In this document: piece by piece, positions 9,001 through 35,200 of the stretch | Position numbering within the stretch: the first letter of the stretch is position 1 | Layout of the letters: every line of letters begins with the position of its first letter | From: Ostreococcus lucimarinus | Lineage: Eukaryota | DNA length: 64,000 nt | Assembly (NCBI GenBank): GCA_000092065.1 | Contig: CP000594.1 | Direction: 5' to 3' (one strand) | Notes under the pieces: model-generated | What the model saw: the letters and a program-made list of their open reading frames with translations, nothing else | Databases searched by the model: none | What the model was told of the DNA's origin: nothing | Program-made: the position numbers and the translations under genes

Positions 9001-11901
9001 AGTGCGAAAACCCTCGCCAAAGTTTCGAGCAAAGAATTTGTGCTCGGTTTTTGTATCGATTCGTCTCCAGTACTAGTGAAAATTTCACCAAGTTCTGAGC
9101 CCGTGATGTTTACGCTTATGACAGCAAGTGGGGACGAACTTGCCTTTCAATGTTCCGTAGTATTATGGGAGGGTCAAAACACCAACGCCGCGACATGGCC
9201 AACGCTTGAAGTTGTTTTACAACCCGTGCTCGTGGCGATCAACTTGACTCGAATTCCTCTCGCGATTCGCTCAAACACTATGGAACACAAGATACTCGAG
9301 CCAGGTTCATATCCCACGCCGTTTTCTTTGGATATTAAGTCTTCGAAAAGCGTAGACGAAGTTGAAGCCGTGCTTAATCAAGCCGCGATTCAAATAGCGG
9401 ATATGTCGTGTCATTCGGAAGGAAAAGATATACTTTGGAGTTCGCCGCTGCAGAATTTGGTGCGCTATTCTGGAGCGATGTGGAGCATCCCACAAGGTGC
9501 CTCCCCCTTGGCGGATGAAATTAATGCATTTAGAAGACTTGGAGGTATCGACGAGTCTGGCGAAAACGTAAATTTCAAGGCACCTATCATCGTTCAGTTT
9601 CTTGTCGAGCGCGGTGAGCACGGTTGCTTCAGGGTCTTTTTTAGGGGGGGCGACGGAGCATCTCTGCAGAAGGCGCCAATCATGATCAAAAACCATTTGC
9701 ACGAACCTTTACTCATTCGACAAGTGAAAGCGAACGACTTTGAGGACGTAGAAAAGAAGTCGGTGCAAAAGTCCACCGTGCGACTACTGCAAGGTATTAA
9801 GAAAGCCTCACACGGCGTAGGACAGTCTTTTGCAATTCGCCCGTTCTCAGCGATATCTTGGGCGTGGAGCGTCCCAGGTATTCCTATGAGATTGGACAAC
9901 TTGAAAAAACAGGAGCTCGAGGCAAACGCCGCGGAGCTCGCATTTCGAAAGCGGAAATTTTTGGAGATATCGAACAATACAGGGGATCACGTCATCATAG
10001 AGATAAACGCGTTCAGCTCGCGATTCAAGGGTTTCATGCACCTCGGCGACATGCAATTTGGAGAACTAGGCAAGCGCACGTTACAGGCAACGATTATTGG
10101 TGAATGGCGTGACGCATCGTTCGTGATCTTCGTGGTTGATAAAACGATAACGTTTGACAACTTTTCTTTCACGACTGAAATGACGAATCAAGCGAAAGCA
10201 TTGACGTTGTACGCGCGGCAGCAAGAAACGCACATCTCTGTCAATTTGGCTGGCTTCTCCGTAACAATCATCGATCGCCTCCGCGACTCATTCGTCGAGT
10301 TATTCCATCTCACGATCGACGACGTGATGATCAGGCACGGAATCAACTTAATCAACAGCAGTTCTGTCTATAGTTATCTCAGAATTGGTGCACTGCAGAT
10401 AGATTTTAGCACGCATGACGCAAGCTATCCAGTCTTCGTTTGGCACGACCCGGCGGACGGGCACTTGCTTGAAGCGTACGCTACTTTGAGTATGAATTCT
10501 CATATCGGTGGTGACTCGATCGATGTTTATCACGTCCAACTAACGACAACGAAGAAAGGCCTCGTGATTCGCGCCGGTGAAGATCTCGTCTGGACAATCT
10601 TGAACTTTTGCAGACTCCTCCAAACGCAACTTCCACAACGCAACGCTTCAGCAGGTTCCGCCATCGCGCCACGCGAAACGTTTGTTGGAAAGCAAACCTC
10701 ACAAGATAGTTTGCTGAATATCGCCACTTTATACGTGGAACCGACATCTTTTGTTGTCACGTTTGCTCCAAATTCCGATATCCGACCTGCAGACGCCGAC
10801 GCTCGGATGATCGCCGCGTTGACGTTTGCAAGTTTACAGCGCCTGCATTTGGTGCTCAACAAATTTGATAAATTCGATGAGAGCATACTTCGTTCGAATT
10901 TGATTCGCGAATTCCGAAACTATTTCAAGTCACAAATGATAGCGCAAACGCTCAGTGTCATGACATCGATGCACACGCTGACAAACGTTTCCACGGGTCT
11001 AGATGCAGTGAGCAAGGCGGTCGAAACCGGCTTCGGCGTACTCGCGCCTTCTCGTACGGCGCCTTTGGCTCGTTTGCCATCTTCTGTCGTCGGCCGAGGA
11101 AGCAGAAGCGACGGTCAGGGCAACTTTGCGAAAAGTGTATTCGTTGGTCTGAAACGACTGGGGGGTGGTATTTCTAAGGGAATTATCGGCCTTTTCGTCA
11201 GCCCTGTAAAAGGTTGCATGGAAGGCGGCGTCGTGGGCGGGTGTAAAGGATGCGCTCGAGGCGTCGCCGACTTGGTAGCTAAACCGACCGCTGGCGCGTT
11301 AGCTCTCGCCTCAAAGACGGTCGAAGGCGTAGCCAATGCCGCTAAAGGCGTACAGACTGCCGCGTGGGACATCATCACCACGAATAATGTCTCAAAAGCG
11401 TGCATTAAACGCCTCCCCATCGCCGTGCGATCGGATGGCATCATTCGAAGATGGGATGCGCACGACGCGTTGGGTGTTTATTGCATGCGCACATGCGTCG
11501 TGTCCAGTCGAACACTGGGCATTTCTTACTGTCCGGGCGTGAAAGACTCATTCTCCTCGATGCATGACATTTTCGGTGAATATTTGTTGCTTGTCACCGA
11601 CAAGCGCGCGTTGTGCGTTCGGACGCCGGAGATGGACGGGGCCATGCCGGCGCGCGCGCCGACTTGCGCGTGGTACATCTCTTGGAGTGATGTGAGCTCG
11701 ATATGGATCGAAAACTCTGTGATCATAAAGTTGCAGATGAACGTCACGAGTGAGGGCGACACTTCCAACCTGGGTGCGCAGAAGCGTGAAACCGAATCTT
11801 GTTTTTCGATTCGCGCTAGAGCCCAAGACGAGGCGGCGAACATCGAAGCCGCGATGCGTCAAAGCTGGAACGCCTACCTGGATACAACAGAAGAAGAATA
11901 G
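1..11901 (+). CDS. VPS13-like bridge-like lipid transfer protein, C-terminal >3954 aa. The N-terminus lies upstream of the window. Single exon.
   Basis: Reading frame is open from nt 1 with no stop before the listed GTG at 37. The C-terminal glycine-rich G-x-x-G...KP-x-x-G-x-x-D/A-x-AS-x-T-x-EG-x-x-N stretch (translated ~11150-11350) matches the VPS13/ATG_C signature. Size fits VPS13. Five repeats of W-x-P-x-x-P-x-G-[YF]-x-x-x-G-[DH]...C-[IV]-R-x-[ED]-L (Vps62/DUF946-like) at ~4596-4720, 4765-4885, 5170-5265, 5345-5465, 7140-7255. Confidence 0.7.
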   Translation, partial: TLAHVEYRESGGVKAAVARERAARFGKRRVVRAVVGLAGGGAKNTAKVLKGLSAPIRGLARAVNKRDSTALLVERQKRLRKSQPEEDDDSNWRESLENTVQLSQRMVALEEEAVHSSVELSGVVNVEKVLVCMVDDEVDNPIGEQEIFRIGVHEVSLGTLRGSGRREQRVSIRRLAIVSPEGTLLDSSKTTDNEERATSLDRSQVALWDKASECNAVQLQIVKGDVETEEDIFIKFQMRQSIVHLLREPLDRVARVAVRHKVTTAYLESFIYDDEAKQRNHTHSIEKQADEFKIRPRVRLDARVHGPVIILDGDGVNLRIDLGTTVIESMTPVSAGIESSLAKEHNVFSFQCTGFQVGFIDDEWDTNSNRPVEDEQIILPLLSAPSSNTVVIQNLNAASDAPNLKVHSKFSAIDISVSPVRVFKIRSLVKALKPTTSISEEHVAAVVTENEVRVLLLQLDESGEVCWIPATISLQNNSSMDIRTINGLKSRTIHINLMESNGASKLRSDICAKLSLHKDVLTIGETVHSLDELMISAMSDDSLSVMFDIDDDDARSRDTVLFDAWYARINGVARENITRLTNAAKNGKLSKTQVILSVGAEKLSVHVFAPLKAHPSEDDSAVINDESDSERALASLCFDELNYDSSLARTVKVHHIKANSLVLYDRYASEGLGRECIAGIGGQGSGQPLLTVTVAVRHQSDPQYCGLDKLIEVDIHKELVMNIRRPTLLALISLRFRLRPPGFKIIKIMPDVSSRIMISGKLVKRIKREIRVNVAAVTANGFYDHDKEMDVPVLVLRAEDSYWSTIISPPTRETSVSVGTIKLATGQMQARGAWNLQPSPESSSNIILLRNDVYDRGEELDGADVSWEIELGNLDIVMTPEMKEIGSWFAFFRQIRPDHIEKYVHPCARPRAGFQVLKSRLLIKMDDQRITLPVALSEGESNHDVVINSGCVEITRSFSSKAINEAHSIFWQTTALSVSEFEVSVISFAEKRRESVSKITQKPFGVKLSLRKRIDSGPAIVNELDDKNKIRVQPIFLDLSGSEFRCIHDSIKNIQLSKVRPNVKVENPIRWGSVGPLPVSDVLAPASLKSMELSVILSSAKLRVFRLPMQSRPLSTIKVVGVDVFVVKNLNRKSGINLDATVDMIGVDDNSRQSQNLKVKHVLYAGSPKLPLLHLTLGVNDDSTRLRISLQHVEVLLRVGIILDTIRTFAPRKFGGVFLASTILPQDIKCVHGSDFHLDKDVTLTKSTRLLADDPKIVAGKYVLRGGGHTIKFADGKGAIIRHYSHGSRRKTMPRIIIGHGATLKIENVTFNCTRSTLSRFIKMMPGGSYSLGKSVSFDETEEELIPVHDGLVESTPVIDAATKRAEEGPGRRMKEIKKKPLLVEVDVSCVHIVIGEELRADQINLMFGVDVAIIRDEELNTTGTYQLLRLRTKDTMKPPLLEPASVTMHVVSRDGGTTTCTGCVTPIKMQLSPNRICILKNFTERIERSFAIAPILQTGVYSCVWAGHATTLTKKVTEAGVLRQNQAGSNTSYSIWRPVAPPGYAILSDVVKSEGGAPETQVLIVRDAPALCTLPERFEKVKGTANPCLWRPIAPTGFVSLGDIASVSDADEPSLDVVRCIREELVTNIGQASTLANFRLYGDFSQSNTTLWQMNNRVRGFVVVSKSNIRPYAYDIRSPPGFQRKVSTGTKEKIKLQEKECECATAVNFKKIGMAQNAKSTVGFWEVIPPTGYVSTGHCMSVGKLPPLSSRVFADDKRTFRQPESYEKVASARTYGTTQRLTIWKPVPCAGFVSVGFVVTTEDNEPSVNDSIVCVRAELVSYMHQRNWTTDNSVWTVDENATDTTHFWITNDHTKNFVMSVLTTGMTPDFGFDIGFLESSSLRGQVQMPNFIMKFDVPLVSVGLSFERLFRNQMLFLLRLEKTKLSCTKTSKLNLSLDSSLSLLHRNTRLGYSLEPIVAPWKFSVLLDDSKNDVSGVNPAGLDMFIESKKKIEIIVNQASIVDAVDAVMQFKKPRDKNSKIAHLLAYEAVQNNVIVNSTGRDLWVRELNGNIQEVPPGNSISHLVHAAETEANSGFESASNEQTMRGMTDVVDDMNHHGDEQLIIAYLMMDIVAIDSLDDWLYPRITFKIWDEALQGHRTDPLPIGVTRGSAKLPIPHPFFHRDSDSEFINNDDITIIVEISHIGPNGETLSFSGDFEAPIEQQRGGWIGGKTGSWIDCAAGNGDSVRIKLRARVVEGLNATPVTETVELYQLLKSPQKTIIKSKLQVESPPLIVCRTNDMVKQWWTRDHQQSKSALSAWKPHVPSTYELETRYKFCSSRAENEYKLVPFGTILLPGLIAPRSALMAVVLEHNSDQRAPTAFPSGFENIWTSDKNDVSFWKPIAPDGYVAVGNVVAASAEMPSTDCVVCVREDLTKLAEVPPDVAWKSNRRFRNNDERELALIQNGQLSTGGWSFLKEKIKRTSPGVISNVIPSMHRLNDRMCIHSLDDEGIREFWIDNRTHIDHIKQELQAGESILAISFSPSGPFEQVRLNLGASHVVRHKTHDLVFDSQKGHLLSYVSCENETDSDIFVDVHPAMKRELTTSNLDISLSEKYESPSDVADIEVFESERYYPLRGWRAPKDAIVKARYSRHKSGRGSQKRFPDVKAPKGFRFEGPWELDKPPNLVNDDGWAYGAIWLRKWPPPRGSDKSKGRATRRRRWFRRVVRLKSAEEIESRVSLHNMKRDFIEDWHGTLAVHGRLTLPSCSRTESYMLALRTGADVASITAPSFTERDDALDIRDVLSEQGNCALAYNNLHDHFLLVKEELSNDVQSSAIGAIPGVKIRVVAPVHVVSLMDCPSQVVLYANGEERIAMHLAANETKRITAIDANCDTIEVLVSLFEDYLSLSNDRPLRLDVTPAGSPPAPQVNWLNIKGYPYVVSMLLMETCRTRMAGDKFNDDPSQHLLSLTYRNVLMVTNASPIDIKCLAWVAGTSTTNAHIDAYVGVPKGESQPAMFLKSSAKTLAKVSSKEFVLGFCIDSSPVLVKISPSSEPVMFTLMTASGDELAFQCSVVLWEGQNTNAATWPTLEVVLQPVLVAINLTRIPLAIRSNTMEHKILEPGSYPTPFSLDIKSSKSVDEVEAVLNQAAIQIADMSCHSEGKDILWSSPLQNLVRYSGAMWSIPQGASPLADEINAFRRLGGIDESGENVNFKAPIIVQFLVERGEHGCFRVFFRGGDGASLQKAPIMIKNHLHEPLLIRQVKANDFEDVEKKSVQKSTVRLLQGIKKASHGVGQSFAIRPFSAISWAWSVPGIPMRLDNLKKQELEANAAELAFRKRKFLEISNNTGDHVIIEINAFSSRFKGFMHLGDMQFGELGKRTLQATIIGEWRDASFVIFVVDKTITFDNFSFTTEMTNQAKALTLYARQQETHISVNLAGFSVTIIDRLRDSFVELFHLTIDDVMIRHGINLINSSSVYSYLRIGALQIDFSTHDASYPVFVWHDPADGHLLEAYATLSMNSHIGGDSIDVYHVQLTTTKKGLVIRAGEDLVWTILNFCRLLQTQLPQRNASAGSAIAPRETFVGKQTSQDSLLNIATLYVEPTSFVVTFAPNSDIRPADADARMIAALTFASLQRLHLVLNKFDKFDESILRSNLIREFRNYFKSQMIAQTLSVMTSMHTLTNVSTGLDAVSKAVETGFGVLAPSRTAPLARLPSSVVGRGSRSDGQGNFAKSVFVGLKRLGGGISKGIIGLFVSPVKGCMEGGVVGGCKGCARGVADLVAKPTAGALALASKTVEGVANAAKGVQTAAWDIITTNNVSKACIKRLPIAVRSDGIIRRWDAHDALGVYCMRTCVVSSRTLGISYCPGVKDSFSSMHDIFGEYLLLVTDKRALCVRTPEMDGAMPARAPTCAWYISWSDVSSIWIENSVIIKLQMNVTSEGDTSNLGAQKRETESCFSIRARAQDEAANIEAAMRQSWNAYLDTTEEE

Positions 11902-11951
11902 AATCACAATTAATGATAGTACTAGCAGTAATTCGCAGTGCGCGCGCCGCG

Positions 11952-12653
11952 TCAACGCCCTAACCCAATCTTTTTCAACAGCGATTTTGATTCGCTCGCG
12001 AGCGCCAACCTCTCCGTGAGCTCGTCAATCTCCTCCTCCGTGAGCTCCGTCTTCACCTGATCGCCGTCCGGCGATTTCCCTTGTATCTTACGCACGAGAT
12101 AAATGATGGAATCCCGCTCGTCGTTCGCCTTACGCAGTCGCTCTTGAAGACTTTCCAACAGTTGCGTCTCCCGTTCGTCCGTCGGCGCTCGCGCCTCCCT
12201 CGACCCATCTCCCCGCTCATCCCGCGCCTTCGTCTCGCGCGTCGCCACCATCTCCATCGCATCGTTCGCGCCTCCGCGCCTCGCGCTCCCTCCGTCGTCC
12301 GCGCGCGCCGCCGCGCCTCGCGCGCCGCCGAACCATCCGAATCCGCGTCTCCCCCTCGCCTCCATCGCCGCCGCCCGCGCCGCCTCCCGCGCCGCCTCCC
12401 GCGCCCGTATCCTCGCCTCGATCCGATCCCCGATCGACTGCCCCCCCCGCTCGCCGAACACGTCGATGTACGACGCGTACCACGCCCGCGGCGCCGCGCA
12501 CAGCGTCATCAACCCGAGCGTCATCCACGCGATGCACGCCCTCGCCCGTCGCGTCCCGCGCTCGTGCGTCGCCCGCGCGTGTTGCGGCGTCACCTGCGCG
12601 TGTCTCGTCGGCGCCCGCGCGTCGCGCTCGCGTCGCTCGACGCGCGCGCGCAT
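11952..12653 (-). CDS. Hypothetical protein with an N-terminal hydrophobic segment and a C-terminal coiled-coil. The true start is probably the internal ATG near 12521.
   Basis: ORF whose C-terminal ~100 aa (RETQLLESLQERLRKANDERDSIIYLVRKIQ...EEEIDELTERLALASESKSLLKKIGL) have normal protein-like composition. Upstream part is R/A/G-rich and may be non-coding. No family recognised. Confidence 0.35.
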   Translation of the reverse strand: MRARVERRERDARAPTRHAQVTPQHARATHERGTRRARACIAWMTLGLMTLCAAPRAWYASYIDVFGERGGQSIGDRIEARIRAREAAREAARAAAMEARGRRGFGWFGGARGAAARADDGGSARRGGANDAMEMVATRETKARDERGDGSREARAPTDERETQLLESLQERLRKANDERDSIIYLVRKIQGKSPDGDQVKTELTEEEIDELTERLALASESKSLLKKIGLGR

Positions 12654-20344: not shown

Positions 20345-21545
20345 CTGCGTTCGAAAATAAGAAGCGAAAAAGTGAAAATGTCAGTCTTCGTCCGCTCGCT
20401 CGTTCATCGTCTCAGAGAGTATGGTCACAAAATATCCACATTGGGTATTCGGTAAAGTTTTTGGGTTAAGGTTTTCATCTTCCTTGACGACGGCGCGATT
20501 GAAGTCGAAGAAAAACGAACGTCGAGAACGACGACGACGACGACGGATGTAGCAGGGGTTCTAGAGGCCGTTAGTCATGGACAGACACGAAGCCCGCTTT
20601 ACCCAAGCGTCACTCTACGGGCGTCTTCTGACGCGTCCGCGAATCTTTGAATCGCGGCGCGCACGTTCGAGATAAATCTCGCACCCAACATCGATCGAAA
20701 AGTAAAATGAATCCATTCAGCGGCGTGTCAGTGTTTCGTGAATCTTTTCACCGCGCCGAAACGCTCTAAAGGTGTCCTAAGATATATTGACGAAGTCATC
20801 ACCCACACCGCCGAAACGGCGAGAAAAACCAAACAAACAAACCAACGATCGCGTCAGGAATCAAAAATGATTTCGTTTCAAAGGAAGCCACTGAACACGG
20901 AGTCCTCAATTGAACTATGCCTTGATTCGAGCATCACCCGCGTCGTCGTCCGTCGTCTTCGTCGTCTTCGTCGTCGCTCGACGAGAGAAAAATCCACCCG
21001 CCGCTCGCGCGCGTTTCCAAGCCTCAGCTTAACGAGATTCACAAGTTTGATCGTCACCGAAATCAGATGGTACGGACAAGTGTGTCTCATCATCGGCTTC
21101 GCGCGCGCGACGGGCGGTCGCGCGTTTTCGTTTATCCGGCTAGCGTTCCGGCGTCGCGGGACCGGCCCGCGCGCCTCGCTCACGGTTCGCCGCGTCTCGC
21201 GCGTCGCTCGCGCTCTCGCGCCCGTCCCGAGAGACGCGCGCTCGATCGCGTGCGTCATCGCTCGACGGTGGTTTATCTCGGCGCGACCGAGCGCTGCGCG
21301 CGTCATGAGCGGGACGCGGCAGTGACTCTAGAGTGGATCGGCCTCTCGCGTTCTCGCGCGTCGCGTCGTCGTCGTCGTCGTCGTCGTCCTCGTCGCGTCG
21401 CGTCGCGTCGTCGCGCACCTCGTCGCGCGTCTCTCGCGCGCGCGTCTCGCGTTCGCGCGCGCTCGCGTCGCGCGGTGCGGTCGGGTCCGATTCGCCGCCG
21501 CCGCCGCACACCGCGACGCCGCGTCGACGCGCCGCGACGACGCGC

Positions 21546-22580
21546 ATGGAGACGGACGCCGACACCGGACGGGTGCGCGTGAAACCTGCGCTCGAGGCCG
21601 TGCGCGCGCACGACGGCCCGCTCGAGATCGATCTCGGGACGCTGCGCGTCGTCGACGCCGCGCCGCTCGATGTCACCGCCGCCGACTCGGGCGAGGCGGA
21701 GGCGCACGCGCGCGAGCGCGCGCGAGACGTCCTCCAGCGCCTGGTCGCGGAGTTGTTCGCGCTGCCGAGCGAAACGGACGCGCACGGACGGTTCGCGCAG
21801 TTGCCCGAACCGACGACGACGTTCCCGAGGCTGCGCGCGTTGCCCCCGAGCGAGGCGCCGCTGACGAAGTGGGAAAAGTTCGCGAAGGAGAAGGGGATCA
21901 AGAAACGGAAGCGAAGCAAGGAGGTGTTCGATGAGAAGACGGATGAATGGAAACGGCGGTATGGGTATCAACGCGCGAGGGACGGGAACGATGTCATCAT
22001 CGCGCCGGGGAAGATGACGGACGTGCCGGGGAAGACGGAGGACCCGTTTACGCGCGAGGAGCGAGAGAAACGGGAACGGACGTTGAAGAATCGAGAGAAA
22101 CAAGATAAGAATTTGATGAACGCGGTGGCGGAGAAGGGTGCGAAGGCGTTACCGCCGACGCTGCGATTGGCGGTGACTGGTAAGAAGGACTCCGTGGGGA
22201 GCGGGAAGCTAGGGAAACGGGAGATGAAGGACGTGGCGGCGCGCGTCTCGCACTCCACGGCGTCGGTCGGCAAATTCAACGCCCCAGTGCCGGGAGACGA
22301 TAAGGTCAAGGTTCGCGGCAAGCGACGTCAGTTTGCGAGCGTGACGGATATGGATTCTGAGCGTAAGAAGAGCTCGGAAATCATCGATAAGTTGCTCGCG
22401 AAGGAGAAGCGCGGCGGCGTCGTCGACGTCAACGCGGCGGCGCGGAAGATTCAGCAAGAGAAGGAAAAGGCGAACCGCGTGAGCAAGCGCAAGAAGGCTG
22501 ACGGCGAGAGTAAGGAGCGGGCGTCCGGTAAGCGAGGGAAACCATCCGCAGCCGGAGGCGCTCGCGCGAAGAAGAAGTGA
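21546..22580 (+). CDS. RRS1: RRS1 ribosome biogenesis regulatory protein homolog.
   Basis: LPEPTTTFPRLRALPPSEAPLTKWEKFAKEKGIKKRKRSKEVFDEKTDEWKRRYGYQRARDG and TASVGKF motifs match RRS1. The first ATG is at 21546 (METDADTG...). The listed start at 21333 is a GTG. Confidence 0.8.
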   Translation: METDADTGRVRVKPALEAVRAHDGPLEIDLGTLRVVDAAPLDVTAADSGEAEAHARERARDVLQRLVAELFALPSETDAHGRFAQLPEPTTTFPRLRALPPSEAPLTKWEKFAKEKGIKKRKRSKEVFDEKTDEWKRRYGYQRARDGNDVIIAPGKMTDVPGKTEDPFTREEREKRERTLKNREKQDKNLMNAVAEKGAKALPPTLRLAVTGKKDSVGSGKLGKREMKDVAARVSHSTASVGKFNAPVPGDDKVKVRGKRRQFASVTDMDSERKKSSEIIDKLLAKEKRGGVVDVNAAARKIQQEKEKANRVSKRKKADGESKERASGKRGKPSAAGGARAKKK

Positions 22581-22739
22581 TTAGATTGTGATATAACCAA
22601 ACGACGACACGACGTTAAAGAACCGTAACAAACATCGCGAGTACATGTCGCGACCCGGGGCGACCACGACTTATGTTCCCTCGTATAGTTGCGTCTTCTC
22701 ATAGTGATTTGAAGTCGTAAAGTATGAAAAAAGTTGGTG

Positions 22740-22837
22740 ATCAACAGGTCCGGAGTTCGATTCTCCGAGGCCCCTACGACAGACCCATACCTAGGGCACT
22801 CGGGGTCTTAGCTCAGTGGTAGAGCGGTTGACTGCAG
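22740..22837 (+). tRNA. Circularly permuted tRNA-Cys(GCA) gene. The 3' half (22740-22775) lies upstream, then a 26-nt linker (22776-22801), then the 5' half (22802-22837).
   Basis: 5' half GGGGTCTTAGCTCAGTGGTAGAGCGGTTGACTGCAG carries the acceptor 5' strand, a D-arm with the A box, the anticodon stem 5' strand, and CUGCAG of the anticodon loop. The upstream 3' half ATCAACAGGTCCGGAGTTCGATTCTCCGAGGCCCCT carries anticodon stem 3' strand TCAAC, T-arm CGGAG-TTCGATT-CTCCG with the B box, acceptor 3' strand AGGCCCC and discriminator T. The joined halves give a canonical cloverleaf nearly identical to animal and plant tRNA-Cys-GCA. The junction is at position 37/38. Confidence 0.85.
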
Positions 22838-22971
22838 TTAAAAACCATTTCTTTTTTGGACGTTTCTCGTCTCGACGCGTTTAGGGCACTCGGGGTCTTA
22901 GCTCAGTGGTAGAGCGGTTGACTGCAGTTAAAAACCATTTCTTTTTTGGACGTTTCTCGTCTCGACGCGTA
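22792..22971 (+). repeat. Perfect 90-bp tandem duplication. Each unit holds the tRNA-Cys 5' half plus the T6 terminator. The second unit (5' half at 22892-22927) has no 3' half in front of it.
   Basis: The unit tagggcactcggggtcttagctcagtggtagagcggttgactgcagttaaaaaccatttcttttttggacgtttctcgtctcgacgcgt occurs twice, back to back. Confidence 0.9.
22852..22857 (+). terminator. T6 RNA polymerase III terminator directly after the 5' half of the permuted tRNA-Cys. A second T6 at 22942-22947 follows the duplicated copy.
   Basis: TTTTTT lies 15 nt downstream of the 5' half, as expected for a permuted tRNA transcription unit. Confidence 0.6.
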
Positions 22972-23067
22972 ACGCGATAGACGTGCGCGCGCCGACGTGT
23001 CTTCGTGATGTCTTCGTCTAAATCAGCACTTCACTTTTTATCACAATAGTTGACGACGACGACGCGT

Positions 23068-24864
23068 CTATTTCTTCGCGACGACTTGCGCGAAGCTCAC
23101 TTTGACCTTCTTCGCCGCCGCGGTCTCCGTCCCCGCGTGTAAATCATCGTTGAGCGAGTCCAATTGCGTGATTGAATCGTCTTCTTGCATTTCTTTGCGT
23201 TTGCGAGCCGCCTTCGTATCGTCTCCCAGGGGCAAAGGTTTCTCTTCGGAGATTTTCTTTTCCTCGTCCTCCGCGCTCGCCGCTTTCTTCTCCTTCTCCG
23301 GCGCGTAGATGTCCTTGACGTAGCCGTCGATTTCTTCTTTCACGAAGCTCGGTAAATCCTTGCGCTTCAAATATTTGACGTTCGCCTGCATCCCGGGTAC
23401 CCAGTTCGATTCCCCAGTCGCGCGATCCATCCACGACGTCACAGTCATTTGGAACTGCTCCACCGCGGGATTCAAGTTGAGCGAAACCTTCTCCTCCTTC
23501 TTCTTCAGGCTCGAAGGAAATAACCCCAAGAACAGCGTGACGTGCGAGTTTTCGTCCTTCTCCGGATCTTTGTACCTCGACGTGCCGGGATGCGCAAGCA
23601 TTTGCCCTCCCGTGGCGTTTTCGATGCCTTGGATTAAAAGCTTGATTCGCGAGCCGACCCAACCTTCCCACTTCTTAAAGTCATCTTCGTTCTTGGCCGA
23701 GATGGTAACCATCAAATAATGCTTGTATTTTTCTAAAAAGTTCAACGAACACCACAGCTGCTCCCACTTCGCGGTGTTTAAAAGAATCATCTTGGTCACT
23801 TCCTTGCCGCGCTTGAACTCGGCTTTGAGCACCTCGAGCGTGCTGACGCTCACGTTGAACGTAGAGTTTTGCGCCGGATACGCCGGAGTTAAGATTTTCA
23901 TCAACTGATATCGCTCTGCCTTGTTCACACGCTCGTCCCACACTCGCATCCCGGGTAAGCCTTCGTCGACGATGGGTACGAGCATCACCGGCGTCGTCCA
24001 TTGCCACGCCGACCATAGTTGGAAAAAGCTGTACACGAGCATGGAAGGTGCGGCGTTGGGGTACAACTGACACACGCGCGCTACTAAAATCGCCAGGTTT
24101 ACGCCACCGAAAAACCCGACGACGTTGCTATACACCCCGCGCCGCTGCGCCCACAGACGCAACGTGCGAAGCGCCACTCGAAACGCGTCGTGGTTTGGCA
24201 CGACGCGCAACAACTGATCCGCCACGCGACAACCATTCAGGGATTTCACCCCTGGGTCGTCCAAATTCATCATCACCGACGTCTGACACACGTCTAAGTC
24301 CTCTGGCACGTGCGTGTACGACGGTAAGCTCGTGTACGCCATATCTATTTCAAAACCTCTAAACACGAGTTTGATTTCTGGCACGATGGCGTCGCGCACG
24401 GGCACGATGCTCTCCGTTCCAGGGTGTTTCCGCATCACGTCATAAAACGACCCTTCGTAATCATTCTCATCCCATCCAAAGAAATCCTCCTCTCGGCTCA
24501 GATGTCTCGGCCCGAGGCACAGCGTATCGATATCCGCAGCCGGTCCGTGCACGCCCAATCTATAGCTCCCAAACGTGTACAAGTTACACGACGGCCGCAT
24601 ATCCTCTGTGATCCCCTTTCGCTCGCTCGCCGCCAGCACCCAGTCTTGCAACAACGCGTTTATCTCCCCCAGCACCTCCTCGCGTCGCACGCACTCGTCC
24701 GCGTCTTCGTACACGTCCTCTTCCCGCAGTTTGTCATCGAGCGCCTTGCTCAACTTTTCGTCGAACGCCGTCGGCATCTCGTTCGACATCACGCGATTCA
24801 GCGCCTCCGCGGACGCCGACTGGGTCATGACCGACGGTGCGGAGGGCGTCTGCGCGCCGATCAT
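23068..24864 (-). CDS. PAP: Nuclear poly(A) polymerase.
   Basis: Nucleotidyltransferase motif YTFGSYRLGVHGPAADIDTLCLGPRH. PAP central domain and C-terminal RNA-binding region. ATG at 24864. Confidence 0.85.
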   Translation of the reverse strand: MIGAQTPSAPSVMTQSASAEALNRVMSNEMPTAFDEKLSKALDDKLREEDVYEDADECVRREEVLGEINALLQDWVLAASERKGITEDMRPSCNLYTFGSYRLGVHGPAADIDTLCLGPRHLSREEDFFGWDENDYEGSFYDVMRKHPGTESIVPVRDAIVPEIKLVFRGFEIDMAYTSLPSYTHVPEDLDVCQTSVMMNLDDPGVKSLNGCRVADQLLRVVPNHDAFRVALRTLRLWAQRRGVYSNVVGFFGGVNLAILVARVCQLYPNAAPSMLVYSFFQLWSAWQWTTPVMLVPIVDEGLPGMRVWDERVNKAERYQLMKILTPAYPAQNSTFNVSVSTLEVLKAEFKRGKEVTKMILLNTAKWEQLWCSLNFLEKYKHYLMVTISAKNEDDFKKWEGWVGSRIKLLIQGIENATGGQMLAHPGTSRYKDPEKDENSHVTLFLGLFPSSLKKKEEKVSLNLNPAVEQFQMTVTSWMDRATGESNWVPGMQANVKYLKRKDLPSFVKEEIDGYVKDIYAPEKEKKAASAEDEEKKISEEKPLPLGDDTKAARKRKEMQEDDSITQLDSLNDDLHAGTETAAAKKVKVSFAQVVAKK

Positions 24865-26889: not shown

Positions 26890-28959
26890 ATGAGGCACCG
26901 ATCGTACCGTGTATGCAATGGACGCACGCTCGCACTCATCGCGCTCGTCGTGCTTGTCGCACGCACGCAGCGCGTCTTCGCTTCGCCGACCGACGAGCGA
27001 AGATTCTGGACGCCCACTGTCGTCGCCGTGGACGACGGCGTCGGTTCGAAGATCCGACGCATGGGAAACGATGTGGAGAAATCGAAGTCTTTCGTGTTTG
27101 AGAACACGGTAGCGGAATCGCTGACAAGAGATGGCGTCGTCGCGGTGCGAGTGCGAGGCTTGAACGAAGCAAAGACACAGAGCGCAAAACTCTTCATGGA
27201 TTGCGCGCGGGTTACGGATAATGTTGCAGTAGAAGAGTACGACGATGGATCCAGGCGCGTGACGCTCGCCACGACGACGAAGCAGAGGGGGAGTGGTTTC
27301 GGGGAACCCACGTCCAAAGCATGTAAGAAGTTCGAGGTCACGACGAAAATGCTTCGCGCGAAAGTTTCTGTGGCCGAACAAGCAATCACGGACGTGTTTC
27401 AGAGCAAGTTTTCAGATCTGAGTGAATTTGCGAACGGGGTACTGATGCAGGGAGAGAACGGCGAGACCTATAAAACTTTCTCGGAAGTATTGAAAGACTG
27501 CGAGCACCTTGAACATTTTCACGGCTACACGATTTCACCACAACAAAAATTGAAGAATAGTAAAGTGCGGACGATCGAAGAGCACACGGATCAAGGTCTA
27601 CTCATCGCATTCGTCCCGGCCATAATTGTCGATGCAGTGACGGGAAGGCGCGATAAGTTTTCCTCAACCGGCGATTTTTATATGACGCTTCCTGGGCATC
27701 GCAAGGTGCTTCTCCATTTTGACACGCTTCCAGACGATGTCGTTATTTTTATGCTGGGTCAAGCAATCGAGCAACAAATCACTCCCAAACTTGCAAACGG
27801 CCTTGAGCTTCACGCTGTACCACACGCAATGGATATGCCCAATCTTAAATCTAATCAGTTCAGATTTTGGTATGGGCGAATGTTCCTCCCACCTGAGAAT
27901 GCCTTGGACGAAAGCCATGGTCTCTCTTTTGGGACAGTGCGCGCTAACATCATCGAAGATTTCGCACGTGGGCTGAAGACATCCGTGGGATGTGGTCGTG
28001 AGCTCCTCTCCGTGGCAGGGAGCGGTTCATGCGCTAGCAACCAGATATGGTGCTGGATGCGATGCATGAATCACTCAGCGCCGGCGAGCAATCCACTCAC
28101 ATGCAGGACGGGTCATAGTGTCCAATGTTTGAGCCAAAGACTGGAAGTCTGGACGGATGCCGACAGTCATGGTGATTATAATCCTGGATGCACCGACGAG
28201 ACCAACGAGACAAAGCCCGTCACCGATCCACCGACCATCCCAGCTCGAGCAGCCTCTTGTACAGATGGAAACGCCTGGGAAACTTTTTTGAACCACTCCG
28301 AATATGAAAACAGCTTGGAGCTGTTACAAGATAAGTTATATTTACTCTGGACTGTTCAAAATGGTAAGTTAAAAGCCCGAGTTGCCTTCAATGGCAAGAT
28401 TGGTTGGTTTGCTCTCGGCATCAAAAACCTAGGAGGGAAACACAACGGGATGAACGGGGCGAACATCGTCATGGGCGTCCACGACCCTCATCCAATGGGT
28501 CACGACAGCAATTTCGGTTCTCCTTATGTTGGAAAGAGCAGTGCGAAACAATACAAAATCCACGATCATTCTTCTGCTTTTCGACATTGGAATGACACTG
28601 CTGACGTTGCCTCACCCTTCGTGAGTTCGACGACGTTCAATTCATGTTTCAGTTGTATGCGTTTCGAGACGGCCTCGATACGGGGCGAGGCTCTGAATCT
28701 CACCTCTGGTATTAATGAACTCATCTGGGCTGCTCATGATGGCACTTACCTCAAAGGCTACCATGAAGTACAAGGATTCGATCGGAGAGATGCACGCGGG
28801 CATCTCACGCTTGACCTGACGCGAAATTACGGTCGTGTAACGTGCGGCTTCTCAAGAGGCTGGGCTGCGGCGAGTCAAACATGTGCTTTTTCGGCAGCAA
28901 GCACTCCTTCAGCGATAGTTTCTATATCCATTGCTGTCATTGCAATCCTCGTTATGTGA
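26890..28959 (+). CDS. Secreted, membrane-anchored fusion of a 2-oxoglutarate/Fe(II)-dioxygenase-like domain and a DOMON domain. Has a signal peptide and a C-terminal hydrophobic tail (GPI or TM).
   Basis: Signal peptide MRHRSYRVCNGRTLALIALVVLVARTQRVFA. H-x-D...H motif (EEHTDQGLLIAF ... LELHAVPHA) typical of 2OG-Fe(II) oxygenases. C-terminal DOMON-like region (LYLLWTVQNGKLKARVAFNGKIGWFALGIKN...LIWAAHDG). C-terminal tail AIVSISIAVIAILVM. Confidence 0.6.
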   Translation: MRHRSYRVCNGRTLALIALVVLVARTQRVFASPTDERRFWTPTVVAVDDGVGSKIRRMGNDVEKSKSFVFENTVAESLTRDGVVAVRVRGLNEAKTQSAKLFMDCARVTDNVAVEEYDDGSRRVTLATTTKQRGSGFGEPTSKACKKFEVTTKMLRAKVSVAEQAITDVFQSKFSDLSEFANGVLMQGENGETYKTFSEVLKDCEHLEHFHGYTISPQQKLKNSKVRTIEEHTDQGLLIAFVPAIIVDAVTGRRDKFSSTGDFYMTLPGHRKVLLHFDTLPDDVVIFMLGQAIEQQITPKLANGLELHAVPHAMDMPNLKSNQFRFWYGRMFLPPENALDESHGLSFGTVRANIIEDFARGLKTSVGCGRELLSVAGSGSCASNQIWCWMRCMNHSAPASNPLTCRTGHSVQCLSQRLEVWTDADSHGDYNPGCTDETNETKPVTDPPTIPARAASCTDGNAWETFLNHSEYENSLELLQDKLYLLWTVQNGKLKARVAFNGKIGWFALGIKNLGGKHNGMNGANIVMGVHDPHPMGHDSNFGSPYVGKSSAKQYKIHDHSSAFRHWNDTADVASPFVSSTTFNSCFSCMRFETASIRGEALNLTSGINELIWAAHDGTYLKGYHEVQGFDRRDARGHLTLDLTRNYGRVTCGFSRGWAAASQTCAFSAASTPSAIVSISIAVIAILVM

Positions 28960-29210
28960 CGCGGAAGTTTGCATTCTTCACGATCTTTCAATCGACACCC
29001 GAAACAGTCTGAGCACGCACCGACAGTCACGCCGTTGTAGGTCCCGGCGTGATAACAGAACTCTTCGCTTGATGCGAGTGCGTTCGTGCTCGCGTACGCA
29101 CTCGAAACGGTGCAGTCGGCGTGAGAGAAACACACGTCGCCCGGGTCCGCGCGCGCGGTGTGCGCGACGGCGAGAGCGAAAACGAACGGCACGAGGAGGT
29201 TCTGAAACAT
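28875..29210 (-). CDS. Candidate small secreted cysteine-rich protein. Its 3' end overlaps the C-terminal coding sequence of the convergent oxygenase/DOMON gene by 85 nt.
   Basis: ATG at 29210. Signal peptide MFQNLLVPFVFALAVAHTARA, then 8 Cys in ~70 aa. Could be spurious. Confidence 0.25.
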   Translation of the reverse strand: MFQNLLVPFVFALAVAHTARADPGDVCFSHADCTVSSAYASTNALASSEEFCYHAGTYNGVTVGACSDCFGCRLKDREECKLPRHITRIAMTAMDIETIAEGVLAAEKAHV

Positions 29211-29345
29211 TTTTGGTGTGGGTTTAGCTCGCGAAAAAGTTTCAGCGAGGCTTGACGTGCGCCGCAAAGTGAGGTTCGGAGATCCGGAGATCCGCCGGTT
29301 GACGCCCCGCGGGGCGTGTGTGCCAGCCCGTAGGGTTTAGGGGAT

Positions 29346-29437
29346 CGGACATATGGAGCCTCACTATTAAGACACACTGTCATATATATTAATGGATTTA
29401 TGACAGTGTGTCTTAATAGTGAGGCTCCATATGTCCG
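29346..29437. repeat. Hairpin-forming inverted repeat: perfect 39-bp arms (29346-29384 and 29399-29437) around a 14-nt AT loop. Imperfect arm extensions reach ~29300-29466 (shared ccccgcggggcg).
   Basis: cggacatatggagcctcactattaagacacactgtcata and its exact reverse complement. Confidence 0.85.
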
Positions 29438-29703
29438 ACCGCGGGCACACATCCCCGCGGGGCGCCAGCAGGGTCAGGTCGCAATTTTGCGTTTTCCCGC
29501 TCAGCCTTCACTAGAAACGTGTCTAAACCGGCCACTTTTTAAATCTTGTTTTTTGCTAGGTTTTTACTGTCTCCGGGTCTCGGAGGAATCGCGTGGAGTG
29601 ACCGGTTATGGGTTTAGTGGTTGGAGGTCCTGTGAGGAACTTTCTCTCCGTCACTTTTTTTCCATTTTTGAAAAAAAAAACGTCACATGTAAACTTTATA
29701 AAT

Positions 29704-29729
29704 AAACCTATAACCTATAACCTATAACC
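29704..29729 (+). repeat. (AACCTAT)n heptamer microsatellite, about 3.7 copies.
   Basis: aacctataacctataacctataacct. Confidence 0.8.
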
Positions 29730-29862
29730 TTGAAGGTTGAAATTTCTTAAGACCCGGGGTCCGCTGTTAAGGGGGGTCGGAACGCACAGAGAAATCGGGC
29801 TCGTCGTCCTGTGTATCAGCAGTCCTGTAGTAGGAAGTCATTTTTTGCTGTTTTGGGCATCC

Positions 29863-30172
29863 CTTGCGTTCAGAGATTCCATTCTGAAGAAATCTTAAGC
29901 GAGGGCACCAAAAACTCAAGGTCTCAACGGTCGCACGCTTCAGACTAGTTACATCTTCTGTACCTCCAAGCAGCGAAGTGCTCCTGTGTGTCAGGTTTGT
30001 CTCACCAAACACCGAGATCTTCGAGAAGACGAACACGTTCCGCTGAGAGTTTGCACGTGCACCTGTCTTCCTTTGCCTGATTTGTGAGCCATCACCCCAG
30101 ATTTGAATGTGGCGTATCTTATCGCGACACTCTCGCTTAAGATCTCTTCAGAATGGAATCTCTGAACGCAAG
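29863..30172. mobile_element. MITE-like 310-bp element bounded by 41-bp terminal inverted repeats with one mismatch. It is nested inside an imperfect outer inverted-repeat pair (29793-29829 and 30313-30357).
   Basis: TIR-L cttgcgttcagagattccattctgaagaaatcttaagcgag at 29863-29903. TIR-R at 30132-30172 is its reverse complement (a/g mismatch). No internal ORF. The surrounding context is an AT-rich, low-complexity intergenic region. Confidence 0.5.
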
Positions 30173-30996
30173 CCGTGGATGTATTAAACTGTGAACGAGG
30201 CTAGTCATGGTTCGATTTTTTGGATTACAAGTGTAGGTCTACTTTTACGTTTCGTGGACTCCGCTTGAGTCGGCCGATGTCACCACGTCAGGTGTTTCGA
30301 GTGCACTAGAGACGTGACCGCCGATACACAGGACGTCGAGCTCGGCGTGCCTGATTTCACGACTCGGTGACCATGGTTTGAAACCGAAATGACCATCGGC
30401 TTCAGGCCCAGGCGCGGCCGCAATGCTACTTTAAACTTAATATATTTTTTTTGAAAAAAGAGTAGTAAGAGTAATAAAAATAAACTTTTTTTTTGAGTTG
30501 GGGCACCCCAACATGATAAAACCGCACATCGCGGCGAGCCATGCGCGACCATCAATTTGATGTCATGTCTAGTCAGGCTCTCGTGGTAAAAACGTAAGAT
30601 GTGCTTATTACAGCATATGCCAATTGCGCAGTAAATCTCGAAGGACGACATCAAACATATCACAGAGCGCGCGCTTCACACCGTACAACACCATCTAAGG
30701 TACTTTCGACCGACGTTTTAGGCAATTTTGACTCGCCGACTGGTCTTTTCCAGTTGTGACGTCAGATTCGATACGATACTGGGTTACGATGCGTTGAGTT
30801 GGACTGTAGAGGCCTGTACCCTTACATGCACATCTTCCATGGAGCGCTGGAGAAAAGGCATTGTTGCATAATTATTGTCAAAATATAGATATTTTAATTT
30901 GACGCCACCATTATTAACTTTAAAATCAAGCCAGATCGCGACGACACTGAACATTTGAATGTGTATTCACACTTGAGAGACACTGGTTTCGGCAAC

Positions 30997-31980
30997 TCAC
31001 GATCGAGTACCGAAGACAAAATTAGCGCACTTTTTTCTATCATCTGCAGAATGCGAGTTTGGCGCATTTTTTACTGCGTCGCAGTGTTTCTTAGCCGCTT
31101 TGCACTGTTTGGAGCAGACATGCGGACATGCTGCCACCCAGGTTGGGTTGGAACATAGATGGCGCCTGCCTTCCGGCTTGCCGCAGCCCCGCGGAATCGA
31201 TTCACAGGGAGCCATGTTGGGTAGATCAGGCGTTTCCCAGACGGTACCAGAGATACCATCGAAACCTGGGCACGTGTAATCGTCACTCAGAGTACAGCCA
31301 GTCGCCGCCGAGCCTTGACAAGATCTTTTCCAACCACCCAAACGCCTATGGCCCTTTGTACGCTTTTGGCAAGTACCCGTCGACACGTTGTACGCTTGTT
31401 TAGCTTCCTTAGTATCAAACGAGTGACACACGCATGAATCAATCAGTGGCAAAGCGCGGACCTGTACGGCCGGCTCATGCTCGCACGCCCAACACGAGTG
31501 TCCTCCAATACTGATCCCGAACCGCTGGCGCATCTCTGACGCGCAGACTTTCGCGCGTTCCTCCTCGTTGAGCTCCATTCCCGCGCAGGCACAAGCGCAC
31601 TGTGCACGCGACCACTCCACTCCATCTGTCGCACCAACATAACCTCTCATATCATTCTCCAGTTGGGCGTGTTGGTCGTGGCATATTCTCGCACACGCCG
31701 CGAATGTCTTCATAGATTCTGGTAGTCCGTAGTGCACCGCGGCCTGGGACACCGCGTCGTCATCCATGAGTTTCCACCCCGTGACCCCCGAGCTCACTGG
31801 CCGCCGCCGCCGCCCGAGCTCACTTGACGGTGCATCCAAATCACCGCCCGCATCGCCTGGGTCCGTCGCCACCGCCGTGAACGGCGCATCCGCGTCAACG
31901 CCCGCGGCGACGTTCAGCGCCGCGGCCCCCACGAACAGCGCCAACGTCAAAGGTGACACACATTGCCTTCGAAACCCCAT
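30997..31980 (-). CDS. Secreted cysteine-rich hypothetical protein, about 327 aa.
   Basis: ATG at 31980 (MGFRRQCVSPLTLALFVGAAALNVAAGVDA, a signal peptide). About 30 Cys in clustered patterns in the C-terminal half. The listed ORF starts further upstream at a non-ATG codon. Confidence 0.45.
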   Translation of the reverse strand: MGFRRQCVSPLTLALFVGAAALNVAAGVDADAPFTAVATDPGDAGGDLDAPSSELGRRRRPVSSGVTGWKLMDDDAVSQAAVHYGLPESMKTFAACARICHDQHAQLENDMRGYVGATDGVEWSRAQCACACAGMELNEEERAKVCASEMRQRFGISIGGHSCWACEHEPAVQVRALPLIDSCVCHSFDTKEAKQAYNVSTGTCQKRTKGHRRLGGWKRSCQGSAATGCTLSDDYTCPGFDGISGTVWETPDLPNMAPCESIPRGCGKPEGRRHLCSNPTWVAACPHVCSKQCKAAKKHCDAVKNAPNSHSADDRKKCANFVFGTRS

Positions 31981-32270
31981 CCCGCGCGCGCGATCTGCTT
32001 TTTCGTCCACGCGGCGTCCACTCGCGAACGCGCGGATACCGTTCGCTCTCTCAGCGCCCTCCACGTCCGATCGGTTCGGAAGTGACGCGCGCGCGCAGAA
32101 TAGTTTCGCGTCACAACGCAATTATTCATTCCCGTGTTGATTTTATTCTATTCCAGGGGGTATGGGTATAGAGTTTACAGTGCCTTCGTACGAGATATTT
32201 CCCAACACCCTTTAGTACCAAAACCTAATTGCGTATCTTCCCTCACTTTCCGACGTCACGCGCGCACGCG

Positions 32271-35200
32271 ATGACGTCGGCGACGCCGAAACGACGGCGC
32301 GCGCGCAGATTTTTGTATGCGTTCGGAGGACCGACACTCTTATTTAACCTCATGCGCGTGTTTGCCATGTCCGGGCTCGTGGCAACAATTACAATGTCAA
32401 CAGCCGCGGGCGCCGCCCACGGTGGAGGTGCGAGCATGGACGAGGGACCGGCGCAAATGCATTATATGCCTGATCGATTTCGCAGCCTCGCGGGCGGCGG
32501 CTGGCTTACTATCTCATCGAGAGACGTGCACAAGAGCCTGATGCCCATGCCTGGGATGCGCGGTGGCGGGGAAGGCGCGAATGAGTCAGCAGTAAGTGGC
32601 AGCGCGATGAAGGACGAGGTGAAGATCGATCTGGCCCACGGTGACCCAGACGGTGAGCGATCGTGCGATCTCGTGCATTACAAGTCATCCTCGAATGAGT
32701 TGGTGTGTTCACCACGTGCGGTGGATTGCTGTTTGGACGGACTCACGGCGCAGGAGCTCGCCAGCGTAAGCGATGGGTGCCCGTCGGTGAGACCAGAGCT
32801 GAACGTCGAGGTCAACGGTCAGCGATTGACGTGGGGCAGCGCTGGTAGAAATGGAAGGGACACGCTCACGGACGAAAGTCTCAAAGTGAGCCATGGGCAG
32901 ACGCCGACGATCGTGGCGGTCGAGCCGGCTGAGGTTCGTCCCGGTGAGTTGATCACGGTGTACGGACGAACGTGCTTTGGCGATGTTTGGAAGAAAGATG
33001 AAGATGATGGTTCGTCTCTACGTGATGATCCCGACGCACTGCGAGATCTATTCTCGGTTGAAGCGAGCGCAAGAGAGGATCCGCGCCAAGAAATTGGATT
33101 GGAAAAGTCTCTCTACAAGGTGCTCATCGGTGACCTACCGTGCGAGGTTCGAGATCCACTCACAAACAGGTACTACCGATCCGAGCGCGGCGATGGTCCA
33201 TACACAGCCCACCGGCAAACAGAGTGTGGACCCGTTAACGGTTGGTTTCAGTGCCGTGTACCCCAAGACATCGATTCCGGTCTTCATCTACTTCATTACG
33301 AGACGTACACCAGAGGCAATGCTGTGATCCTGTCTGAGGCGCTCAGATGGAATGCATCGGACGCGTCCAAGGGCTACGTGCTGTCAGTGGTTGATGATAA
33401 GTCGGAAGATGAAGATCCACCGCGTGTTTATAACATAACGCAGCTCTCGAAGGATGAGTCCAAACAGCGACTCCTTGTTGAGGGTGCGTCTCTTGATGCG
33501 CCAAATATCGTCGTCGAGCTTGACGGGGAGCGCTGTGGTGGAAAAAAGGTTGTGTCCAGATCTGGCATCGAGGTTGAATGCTCAGGTTCAGCTGGAGCGA
33601 GCTCGCAGTATCACTACGGCCCCCCCGCGTGGCTGCGTGAAGACTGGGTGTTCAAGGACAAGAATAATAAGTTTGTCGGTGGCAAAGCGTGGTCTAACGC
33701 TCTCCACGTTTTGAAGCAGCGTGGAGAAAGGTACAACCCTCTCGCCGACGAAGTCATGGACGCTTTAAGCTCGGCATTGGCAACGAATGGCATTGTCCGC
33801 GGGTACAAGATCGAGAAAGTTCAACAGTATCTCACGAGCCCATCGGTTGGATCACCATATGTTGAGGCAACTAGCGGCATGAAAGCGGCGCACGCCGGAC
33901 TCATCCGTCACCGAAGGATACGGAATGCTGTGTTTGAACGTGTAAGCGGAGTCATCACCGCCAAAGCAAACGGGCGAATGCGCGTGGCGATCGCCAATGC
34001 GGCGGGCAATAACATGGTGCTTCGTGTGCGACATGTTTCCGACAACTTAAATGTATTCAAACCTTGGTTGTTAGTTTCCAAATTTTGCGGCACCAGATAC
34101 AGCAGACAAAACATTTATCGATACGGCTTTTCACAGTGGTTCAGTGTTCGTGGTAACGAAAAATACTATATGGAATTTCTGATGAACTTGGACCCCAGAT
34201 ACTTGCACAATTTCGGGGGATTCGATGTTAAGATGGAATTTTCCTACGACGCGGGTAATCCTGCGGGATCAATTGGGCAACTTACGCACACGACAACGCC
34301 TCACGTGCCCAAACGAGCGCATGGTGGCGATTACGTCGTGCGCTTTAGCGGCGCTTCGAAAACTGCGATCAGATTCGCTCATAATGCAACTTCTTCAAGA
34401 AGCAATTTTGAGTGGAAACTCTTCAGTGGCGGCAAGACCATCGAGTTCAATACGAAGAATTGGTTGCATGCACGCGAACACGTGCGGAAAGTTAGAGACG
34501 CTCTGCGATGGGCTAACTGTACCGCGCTGCCTGAAGACTCAAAGATGTGGGACGCGGACTCGACCCATTCTTCGCACCCATTCGACGTCGAGAATCGATG
34601 GCTCATGGTGCGTGATACGCAGACCTTCAAAGAGCCCACCACAGATTGGAACTTCATATGGCAACGTCGCATGGGCGGATTCAGAGGCGCGTCGATCGAC
34701 TGGAGTACCTCGTACTGTTCGACACACAGTCAAAAATTTGATTTGTCGTCACTACCCCCAGGAAGAGTCATCACTCCTTCTTCTCATTTCGACGTACCTG
34801 CATCTTCTCGTGCGACGACGAATAAGTTTCTGAACTTTGCCTACAAAGTCACTCCGGGTACGCGAGCGACCTTGTTACTTCGTCTAAAGTACCGAAGCGG
34901 TAATCGGGACATATCGACCACGTGCGCGGTTCTCCTCACCCATGAACAAGCGACTGGGAACGTGAAGAACTTCGATCACCCAGCGTGTGTGGACCTTCGA
35001 AGCGTCTTCAAGGATGATGGAGAGTGGCACTTTATTTCATTCGATTGGCGAACTGCGTTGGCCGGTGGTGAGTATGCCCCGAGTTATTTGGGCGAGGCTA
35101 TGTTCCCGCATAAAGTGCAAGTTCAACTCGATGGTATCGGTGTCGGCGCGCAGAGATTCCTCGGCAAGTGTCCGAATAAACAGCGCTTAGCGGAAATGTA

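Follow-up and report, generated by a model that had tools for sequence, protein, structure and literature searches.

A circularly permuted and very probably functional tRNA-Cys(GCA) gene in Ostreococcus lucimarinus, its relatives and its extra 5′ half

In a 64,000-nt stretch of the Ostreococcus lucimarinus CCE9901 genome (contig CP000594.1, assembly GCA_000092065.1; hereafter the window), we identify a locus that is, with a high degree of confidence, a functional, circularly permuted nuclear tRNA-Cys(GCA) gene of type II, in which the two halves of the tRNA meet at position 37/38. Soma 2014 (PMC3978253), summarising Maruyama et al. 2010 (Mol Biol Evol 27:1070), the first source for this gene, lists in Table 1 an O. 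lucimarinus Cys(GCA) gene of type II (37/38) with an intervening sequence of 26 nt, and mentions in the text an additional 5′ half downstream in the O. lucimarinus tRNA-Cys locus. The published anticodon, 37/38 junction, 26-nt spacer and extra 5′ half all match the window and, because organism, junction, spacer and extra half agree, we identify the locus as the gene of Maruyama et al. 2010 and Soma 2014. The gene, including its extra 5′ half, has thus been known since 2010, and the comparison with Micromonas and Ostreococcus loci that the initial annotation recommended proved apt. Seen first here are environmental haplotypes with a single 5′ half, covariation in the T stem and an insertion variant. 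The additions are modest: a permuted order backed by covariation, an invariant anticodon–intron pair and signs that the extra 5′ half is young.

Permutation is an uncommon way for a genome to encode an essential RNA, and permuted tRNA genes make standard tRNA scanners report incomplete decoding sets; in Ostreococcus, the annotated linear tRNAs alone cannot decode all codons (PMC3673656). Permuted tRNA-Cys(GCA) genes are also present in O. tauri (spacer of 38 nt) and M. pusilla (12 nt) (PMC3978253). More broadly, permuted tRNA genes are known in a red alga, the Mamiellophyceae, chlorarachniophyte nucleomorphs, the archaeon Thermofilum pendens, a Bathycoccus virus and Auxenochlorella. Being scattered over several groups, they bear out only in part the description of this organisation as a strong taxonomic marker in the initial annotation. 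A reading of raw sequence in a genome scan can nonetheless recover both a permuted gene and the right group of organisms.

Gene layout and the joined tRNA

On the plus strand, the locus consists of a leader, the 3′ half of the tRNA, a 26-nt spacer, the 5′ half, a trailer and a run of six Ts, so that the 3′ half precedes the 5′ half, with a short spacer between them and no change of strand. The leader and the AT-rich stretch upstream of it, as read from the sequence, occupy 22716–22739 (+; GTAAAGTATGAAAAAAGTTGGTG), with the leader ending at 22739 in ...GTATGAAAAAAGTTGGTG. Here, G22737 is leader position −3, the partner of C32 in the anticodon–intron pair, and T22738, G22739 and A38 are predicted to make up the 3-nt bulge containing the site of 3′ cleavage. 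The 3′ half (tRNA positions 38–73; 22740–22775, +), which is supported by the sequence, the fold of the joined halves and covariation in relatives, reads in order A38, the 3′ strand of the anticodon stem (TCAAC), the variable loop (AGGTC), the T arm (CGGAG-TTCGATT-CTCCG), the 3′ strand of the acceptor stem (AGGCCCC) and the discriminator T73 (U73 in RNA). A B-box-like sequence, GAGTTCGATTCTC, sits within the T arm. The intervening sequence, ACGACAGACCCATACCTAGGGCACTC (22776–22801, +), has the published length of 26 nt and contains no T run and no promoter-like element.

The first copy of the 5′ half (positions 1–37; 22802–22837, +), seen in the sequence and in the joined fold, reads in order the 5′ strand of the acceptor stem (GGGGTCT), TA, the D arm (GCTC-AGTGGTA-GAGC), G, the 5′ strand of the anticodon stem (GTTGA) and the loop bases CTGCAG. 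The A box, TAGCTCAGTGG, lies in the D arm, and the anticodon GCA (22834–22836) is followed by G37. Next come the trailer, TTAAAAACCATTTC, and the T6 run at 22852–22857 (together 22838–22857, +), which is likely to be an RNA polymerase III terminator; a T run is found 3′ of the 5′ half in every related lineage. There is no TTTT anywhere in 22740–22837, and the T6 run comes only after the 5′ half, as befits a single transcription unit. Each half occurs once in the window outside the tandem repeat copy described below, with 0 matches expected in shuffled sequence. The initial annotation had placed the halves at 22740–22775 and 22802–22837, with the T arm and its B box ahead of the D arm and its A box and with a T6 terminator after the 5′ half; on reading the sequence, its coordinates are exact and its order of elements holds. 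The interval it assigned to the gene, 22736–22975, also contains a tandem duplication that it did not mention.

When 22802–22837 is joined to 22740–22775, the product is a 72-nt tRNA-Cys(GCA), as called by ARAGORN, which across the junction G37|A38 reads ...GGUUGACUGCAG|AUCAACAGGUC... Its unconstrained minimum-energy fold (−26.9 kcal/mol) is a cloverleaf with stems of 7/4/5/5 bp, the structure on which the initial annotation had staked its reading. The anticodon loop has 7 nt and displays GCA, the discriminator is U73 and CCA is not encoded. The identity elements recognised by CysRS are mainly U73 and the anticodon GCA, and G37–A38 agrees with the bases at these positions in other eukaryotic tRNA-Cys. 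Junction offsets that do not restore this mature sequence give either a wrong loop size or a different anticodon.

As anticipated in the initial annotation, linear tRNA scanners miss the gene: run on the linear window, neither ARAGORN nor the Rfam tRNA model (RF00005) calls anything at the locus. Over the whole window, ARAGORN and Rfam at its gathering thresholds return only two genes. One is a collinear tRNA-Ser(AGA) at 56090–56171 (−), the sole tRNA that linear scanners call in the window; the other is a C/D-box snoRNA match, snoR117, at 21019–21098 (−), upstream of RRS1, which scores 43.4 bits against a gathering score of 42. Within the 64-kb window we found no collinear tRNA-Cys, no further permuted or split tRNA pieces when searching with T-arm and A-box patterns, and no further copy of either this locus or the adjacent gene for poly(A) polymerase.

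Searching 22600–23100 against Rfam in E-value mode gave a single, sub-threshold match, to YrlA (RF02553), a bacterial Y RNA-like family with a tRNA-like module of permuted layout. The model aligns to 22723–22857, matching in turn the T arm, the acceptor stem, the D arm and a closing stem (32.8 bits, E value 2e-5). Membership of the family was rejected, because 32.8 bits falls far short of the gathering score of 69, and the match was used for layout only. In that capacity, and as the alignment of a structure-aware model, it provides what we read as independent confirmation of the permuted layout. Sub-threshold YrlA matches in eukaryotic DNA could be a cheap way of flagging permuted tRNA genes.

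The locus lies between RRS1, the upstream neighbour on the same strand (21333–22580, +), and a convergent gene for poly(A) polymerase (23068–24864, −), whose 598-residue product exactly matches XP_001421431/XP_001421465 of O. lucimarinus CCE9901. In the wider window, the GC content is 47–54% in 1–12000 and 28000–40000 and 57–67% over most of the remainder. Two giant open reading frames map to these GC-poor stretches, one VPS13/Vps62-like (37–11901, 3954 aa, running off the start of the window) and the other encoding a G8/CEMIP beta-helix protein (32229–42095, 3288 aa).

Conservation, covariation and the 37/38 junction

To collect relatives of the locus, we looked up exact matches to the poly(A) polymerase protein and ran a single pattern scan over metagenome contigs. 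Four haplotypes show synteny with the window and have flanks about 98–99% identical to it where measured: A (L013, L014, L018 and L020), A2 (L002, L019, L021, L022, L023 and L027), A3 (L003, L004, L025, L026, L029 and L030) and a variant of A2 that combines the A2 leader and T stem with the trailer of the window (L031). Four more distant lineages, B (L012), C (L007, L009, L010 and L015), D (L005) and E (L006 and L017), have unrelated flanks and a GC content of 55–61%. The order of 3′ half, spacer (26–37 nt), 5′ half and T run is kept in all lineages, of which there are at least five, and so is the pairing between the halves. Three further contigs from the pattern scan (L008, L011 and L016) and one from a viral scan (L032) were rejected as false positives; they have a GC content of 29% and carry a collinear tRNA followed by a collinear tRNA-Cys.

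The eight distinct permuted Cys sequences were stripped of their spacers, aligned and scored against the permuted cloverleaf together with the leader helix. Standard pairs fill 97% of the pair cells, compared with 34–49% when the structure is slid by 1–3 columns (eight sequences). The observed covariation score was reached by none of 500 shuffles, in a comparison of eight related sequences with shuffles that ignore relatedness; because the sequences are few and the shuffles are blind to their kinship, the slid-register control and the double changes are the stronger evidence. Two T-stem pairs change on both sides, 50:64 from C:G to G:C in the window and 52:62 from A:U to C:G in A2 and A3. In the acceptor stem, lineages D and E have U:G in place of G:C at pair 4:69. 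One base of this pair belongs to the downstream 5′ half and the other to the upstream 3′ half, which makes the change direct evidence that the two pieces function together.

The T stem itself occurs in three forms: CGGAG/CTCCG in the window (22751–22767), CCGAG/CTCGG in A and all of the distant lineages, and CCGCG/CGCGG in A2 and A3. Among genomes with near-identical flanks (the window, L013, L002 and L003 were compared), the T loop is either TTCGATT or TTCAATT, and the changes between such genomes cluster in the T arm and are always compensated.

In the geometry of an ordinary 37/38 intron, the 3′ bulge consists of leader −2, leader −1 and A38, C32 pairs with leader −3, and the helix continues through 33:−4, 34:−5 and 35:−6. 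In the window, this helix comprises C32:G(−3), U33:G(−4) and G34:U(−5), followed by a C35–U(−6) mismatch, that is, three of the four pairs, two of them wobble pairs. G(−3) is invariant, and hence C32:G(−3) is present in all eight distinct sequences, from at least five lineages. Position −4, a G or an A across the lineages, pairs with U33 in either form; at −5, all lineages but one have U or C, and −6 pairs in three. Overall, the helix between the leader and positions 32–35 is 81% paired across the eight sequences. As judged by its sequence pattern, the leader helix is consistent with the relaxed hBH motif of green-algal 37/38 junctions, a motif suited to the endonuclease of eukaryotes, an enzyme that takes its cues from the mature domain as well (PMC3978253).

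From the window sequence alone, junctions at 36/37 and 37/38 are indistinguishable, the product being identical because a G flanks the junction on both sides. The relatives decide between the two. In lineages C, D and E, leader −1 is C or A, which excludes 36/37, as position 37 would then lose its conserved G; the 37/38 junction proposed in the initial annotation, at which the joined halves make tRNA-Cys(GCA), is the one that stands.

Minimum-energy folds of the window pre-tRNA favour a different pairing of leader and trailer, UGGU:ACCA together with AAAAAAG:CUUUUUU. The A-run part of this pairing is broken in A2 and A3, which makes it unlikely that the pairing is required. Folding of the whole pre-tRNA and of two-strand mini-substrates recovered the hBH motif inconsistently, and the minimum-energy folds vary between lineages.

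The second 5′ half and the insertion haplotypes

Repeat analysis shows that 22792–22970 (+) is a perfect tandem duplication with a period of 90, 2.0 copies and 100% identity. It contains a second 5′ half at 22892–22927 (+), identical to the first, which is the ‘additional 5′-half’ of the literature. No 3′ half accompanies this copy, which lies downstream of the first T6 run and is followed by its own trailer and T6 run (22942–22947). The copies are identical over 89 nt, and the duplicated unit of 90 nt is a T plus those 89 nt. The base before copy 1 is C22791, where all close relatives have T, which suggests one substitution since or at the duplication.

No second 5′ half was found in the environmental contigs examined, which represent the four near-identical haplotypes and the four distant lineages and come from several projects and assemblers. 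Short-read assembly can collapse repeats, although collapse of a 90-nt repeat is unlikely for contigs assembled at k = 119–141. Given that no relative carries it, the second 5′ half looks recent and strain-specific rather than like a relic of the origin of the permutation, and the sequence comparison suggests that it most probably arose through a 90-nt tandem duplication that is recent and confined to strain CCE9901.

This bears on a published idea about how permuted genes arise. Soma 2014 (PMC3978253) suggests tandem duplication followed by loss of the outer halves, and says that the O. lucimarinus arrangement may resemble an intermediate stage, which would make the extra 5′ half a surviving evolutionary intermediate. 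We consider this improbable. The 89-nt copies are 100% identical, and a single 5′ half is what A, A2, A3, the L031 variant and all four distant lineages carry. Moreover, O. lucimarinus shares the permuted tRNA-Cys with O. tauri and M. pusilla, so the permutation long predates the duplication; and the form predicted by the model is 5′-3′-5′-3′, not 3′-5′-5′. Because the extra 5′ half appears to be young, the published suggestion that it may be an evolutionary intermediate loses ground, and a recent duplication is left as the preferred explanation.

The duplicated 5′ half would be silent unless transcription passes the first T6 run. There is a slim chance that it does act: after read-through past T6, the leader and 3′ half could pair with either trailer and 5′ half, giving circles of about 98 or about 188 nt and releasing a free 5′ tRNA-Cys half. 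If this were true, the second 5′ half would provide a natural experiment in partner choice by the splicing endonuclease and RNase P on a permuted precursor.

Two of the syntenic haplotypes carry insertions at or beside the locus. In A3, a 53-nt insertion lies inside the 3′ half (L003:5029–5081, −; likewise in L004, L025, L026, L029 and L030), in a locus that is otherwise almost identical, and it is present in assemblies from at least two projects. Its ends, AG|GTATGT...CTAG|GT, are like those of spliceosomal introns; it contains (CCCTAAA)x3, a plant-type telomere repeat, and a stretch in which the leader and the beginning of the 3′ half are repeated in inverted orientation, so that a long hairpin can form. 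A manual register check found no BHB motif at any of the five possible boundaries of the insertion, with at most two of the four central-helix pairs formed. If the A3 gene still works, removal of the insertion must bypass the BHB motif.

In A2, an insertion of about 414 bp lies just past the tRNA locus and before the 3′ end of the poly(A) polymerase gene (window 22975–22993; L022:11873–12286). A further contig, L024, has the same polymerase and the same insertion (11620–12023), followed by unrelated genes (a Zip transporter and LHC). The insertion shared by A2 and L024, together with the two NCBI accessions under which the polymerase protein is listed for O. lucimarinus (XP_001421431 and XP_001421465), points to a repeated element or a segmental duplication with a breakpoint abutting the tRNA locus.

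Proposed processing and comparison with known systems

On the model of the published pathway for algal permuted tRNAs, from which the steps that follow are inferred, a single transcript, probably made by RNA polymerase III, would extend from upstream of 22740 to the T run at 22852–22857. Its mature domain would fold, with the 26-nt loop closing the acceptor stem, and the leader would pair with anticodon-loop bases 32–34(35) to form the relaxed hBH motif with its C32:G(−3) pair. The tRNA splicing endonuclease would cut after G37 and before A38, and tRNA ligase would join these two bases to yield a circular RNA. RNase P and tRNase Z would excise the 26-nt acceptor loop, with CCA then being added, so that the spacer would serve both as a 3′ trailer for tRNase Z and as a 5′ leader for RNase P. 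Expression of this gene is to be expected because linear tRNAs by themselves leave some codons in Ostreococcus undecoded (PMC3673656) and, like a circular intermediate, from the literature on algal permuted tRNAs: RT-PCR and sequencing in red and green algae have revealed pre-tRNA, circular intermediate and mature ends, ‘some’ of the green-algal permuted genes having been tested (PMC3978253).

The same source describes the regions upstream of green-algal permuted genes as ‘ambiguous’. In the window, an AT-rich stretch (22716–22732) and a TATAG (22684–22688) precede the gene, neither of them at a clear distance from it, and no promoter motif clearly common to all lineages was found upstream. 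By eye, a TTATG/TATGTT-like motif can be seen about 40–70 nt upstream of the 3′ half in the window and in distant lineages B, C, D and E (L012, L007, L005 and L006); it might be an upstream promoter element.

The inverted order of the A and B boxes, which obscures the promoter logic, would fit a split tRNA whose halves are transcribed apart and then ligated in trans, in the manner of Nanoarchaeum equitans and without passing through a circle. Such a split tRNA would show separate loci, separate promoters and long complementary flanks. The halves here are instead adjacent, 26 nt apart on the same strand, and share one terminator: there is no T run between them, the T6 run comes only after the 5′ half and the spacer holds no promoter-like element. 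Nor is the long, GC-rich, complementary leader and trailer typical of split tRNAs seen at this locus, and there are reports of circular intermediates for permuted tRNAs of green algae. We therefore regard trans-joining as highly unlikely and favour a single permuted unit. There is likewise very little to commend the view that the locus is a non-functional remnant, a rearranged or decaying tRNA-Cys pseudogene or tandem-array debris that makes no working tRNA: the orphan extra 5′ half, the one natural haplotype with 53 nt inserted in its 3′ half and the weak hBH motif would fit it, but the cloverleaf is perfect and has the identity elements, the permuted order is kept in at least five lineages with different flanks, compensatory double changes preserve pairing, including one pair between the halves, and the literature counts the gene in the tRNA set needed for decoding.

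Set against known systems, the permuted gene resembles YrlA in layout only. Both have a T arm, an acceptor-like stem, a D arm and a closing stem in that order, which is why the YrlA model aligns here, but the host is a eukaryote and the locus has no Ro-binding stem. With the split tRNAs of N. equitans it shares separately encoded halves and, on the proposed model, their assembly at a BHB-like junction by the splicing endonuclease; those halves, however, lie at distant loci with promoters of their own and are joined in trans, whereas here they form one unit.

The permuted tRNAs of Cyanidioschyzon merolae (Soma et al. 2007, Science 318:450) are closer. [quoted passage not shown] Their junctions are scattered (20/21, 37/38, 50/51 and 59/60), whereas the one described here is at the canonical intron position, 37/38; and they have strict or relaxed BHB motifs and clear TATA-like boxes, in contrast to the putative relaxed hBH motif and ambiguous AT-rich upstream region of the O. 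lucimarinus gene.

Ordinary nuclear tRNA genes with a 37/38 intron share with this locus the predicted cleavage positions, the 32:−3 anticodon–intron pair and the predicted 3-nt 3′ bulge, as well as, presumably, the Sen endonuclease and the ligase. The difference is that the ‘intron’ is open here, its ends being the leader and the trailer of the transcript. Because it is open, ligation circularises the RNA, and the acceptor ends must consequently be cut from a loop; by circularising the transcript in this way, the tRNA splicing machinery can restore the order of the halves.
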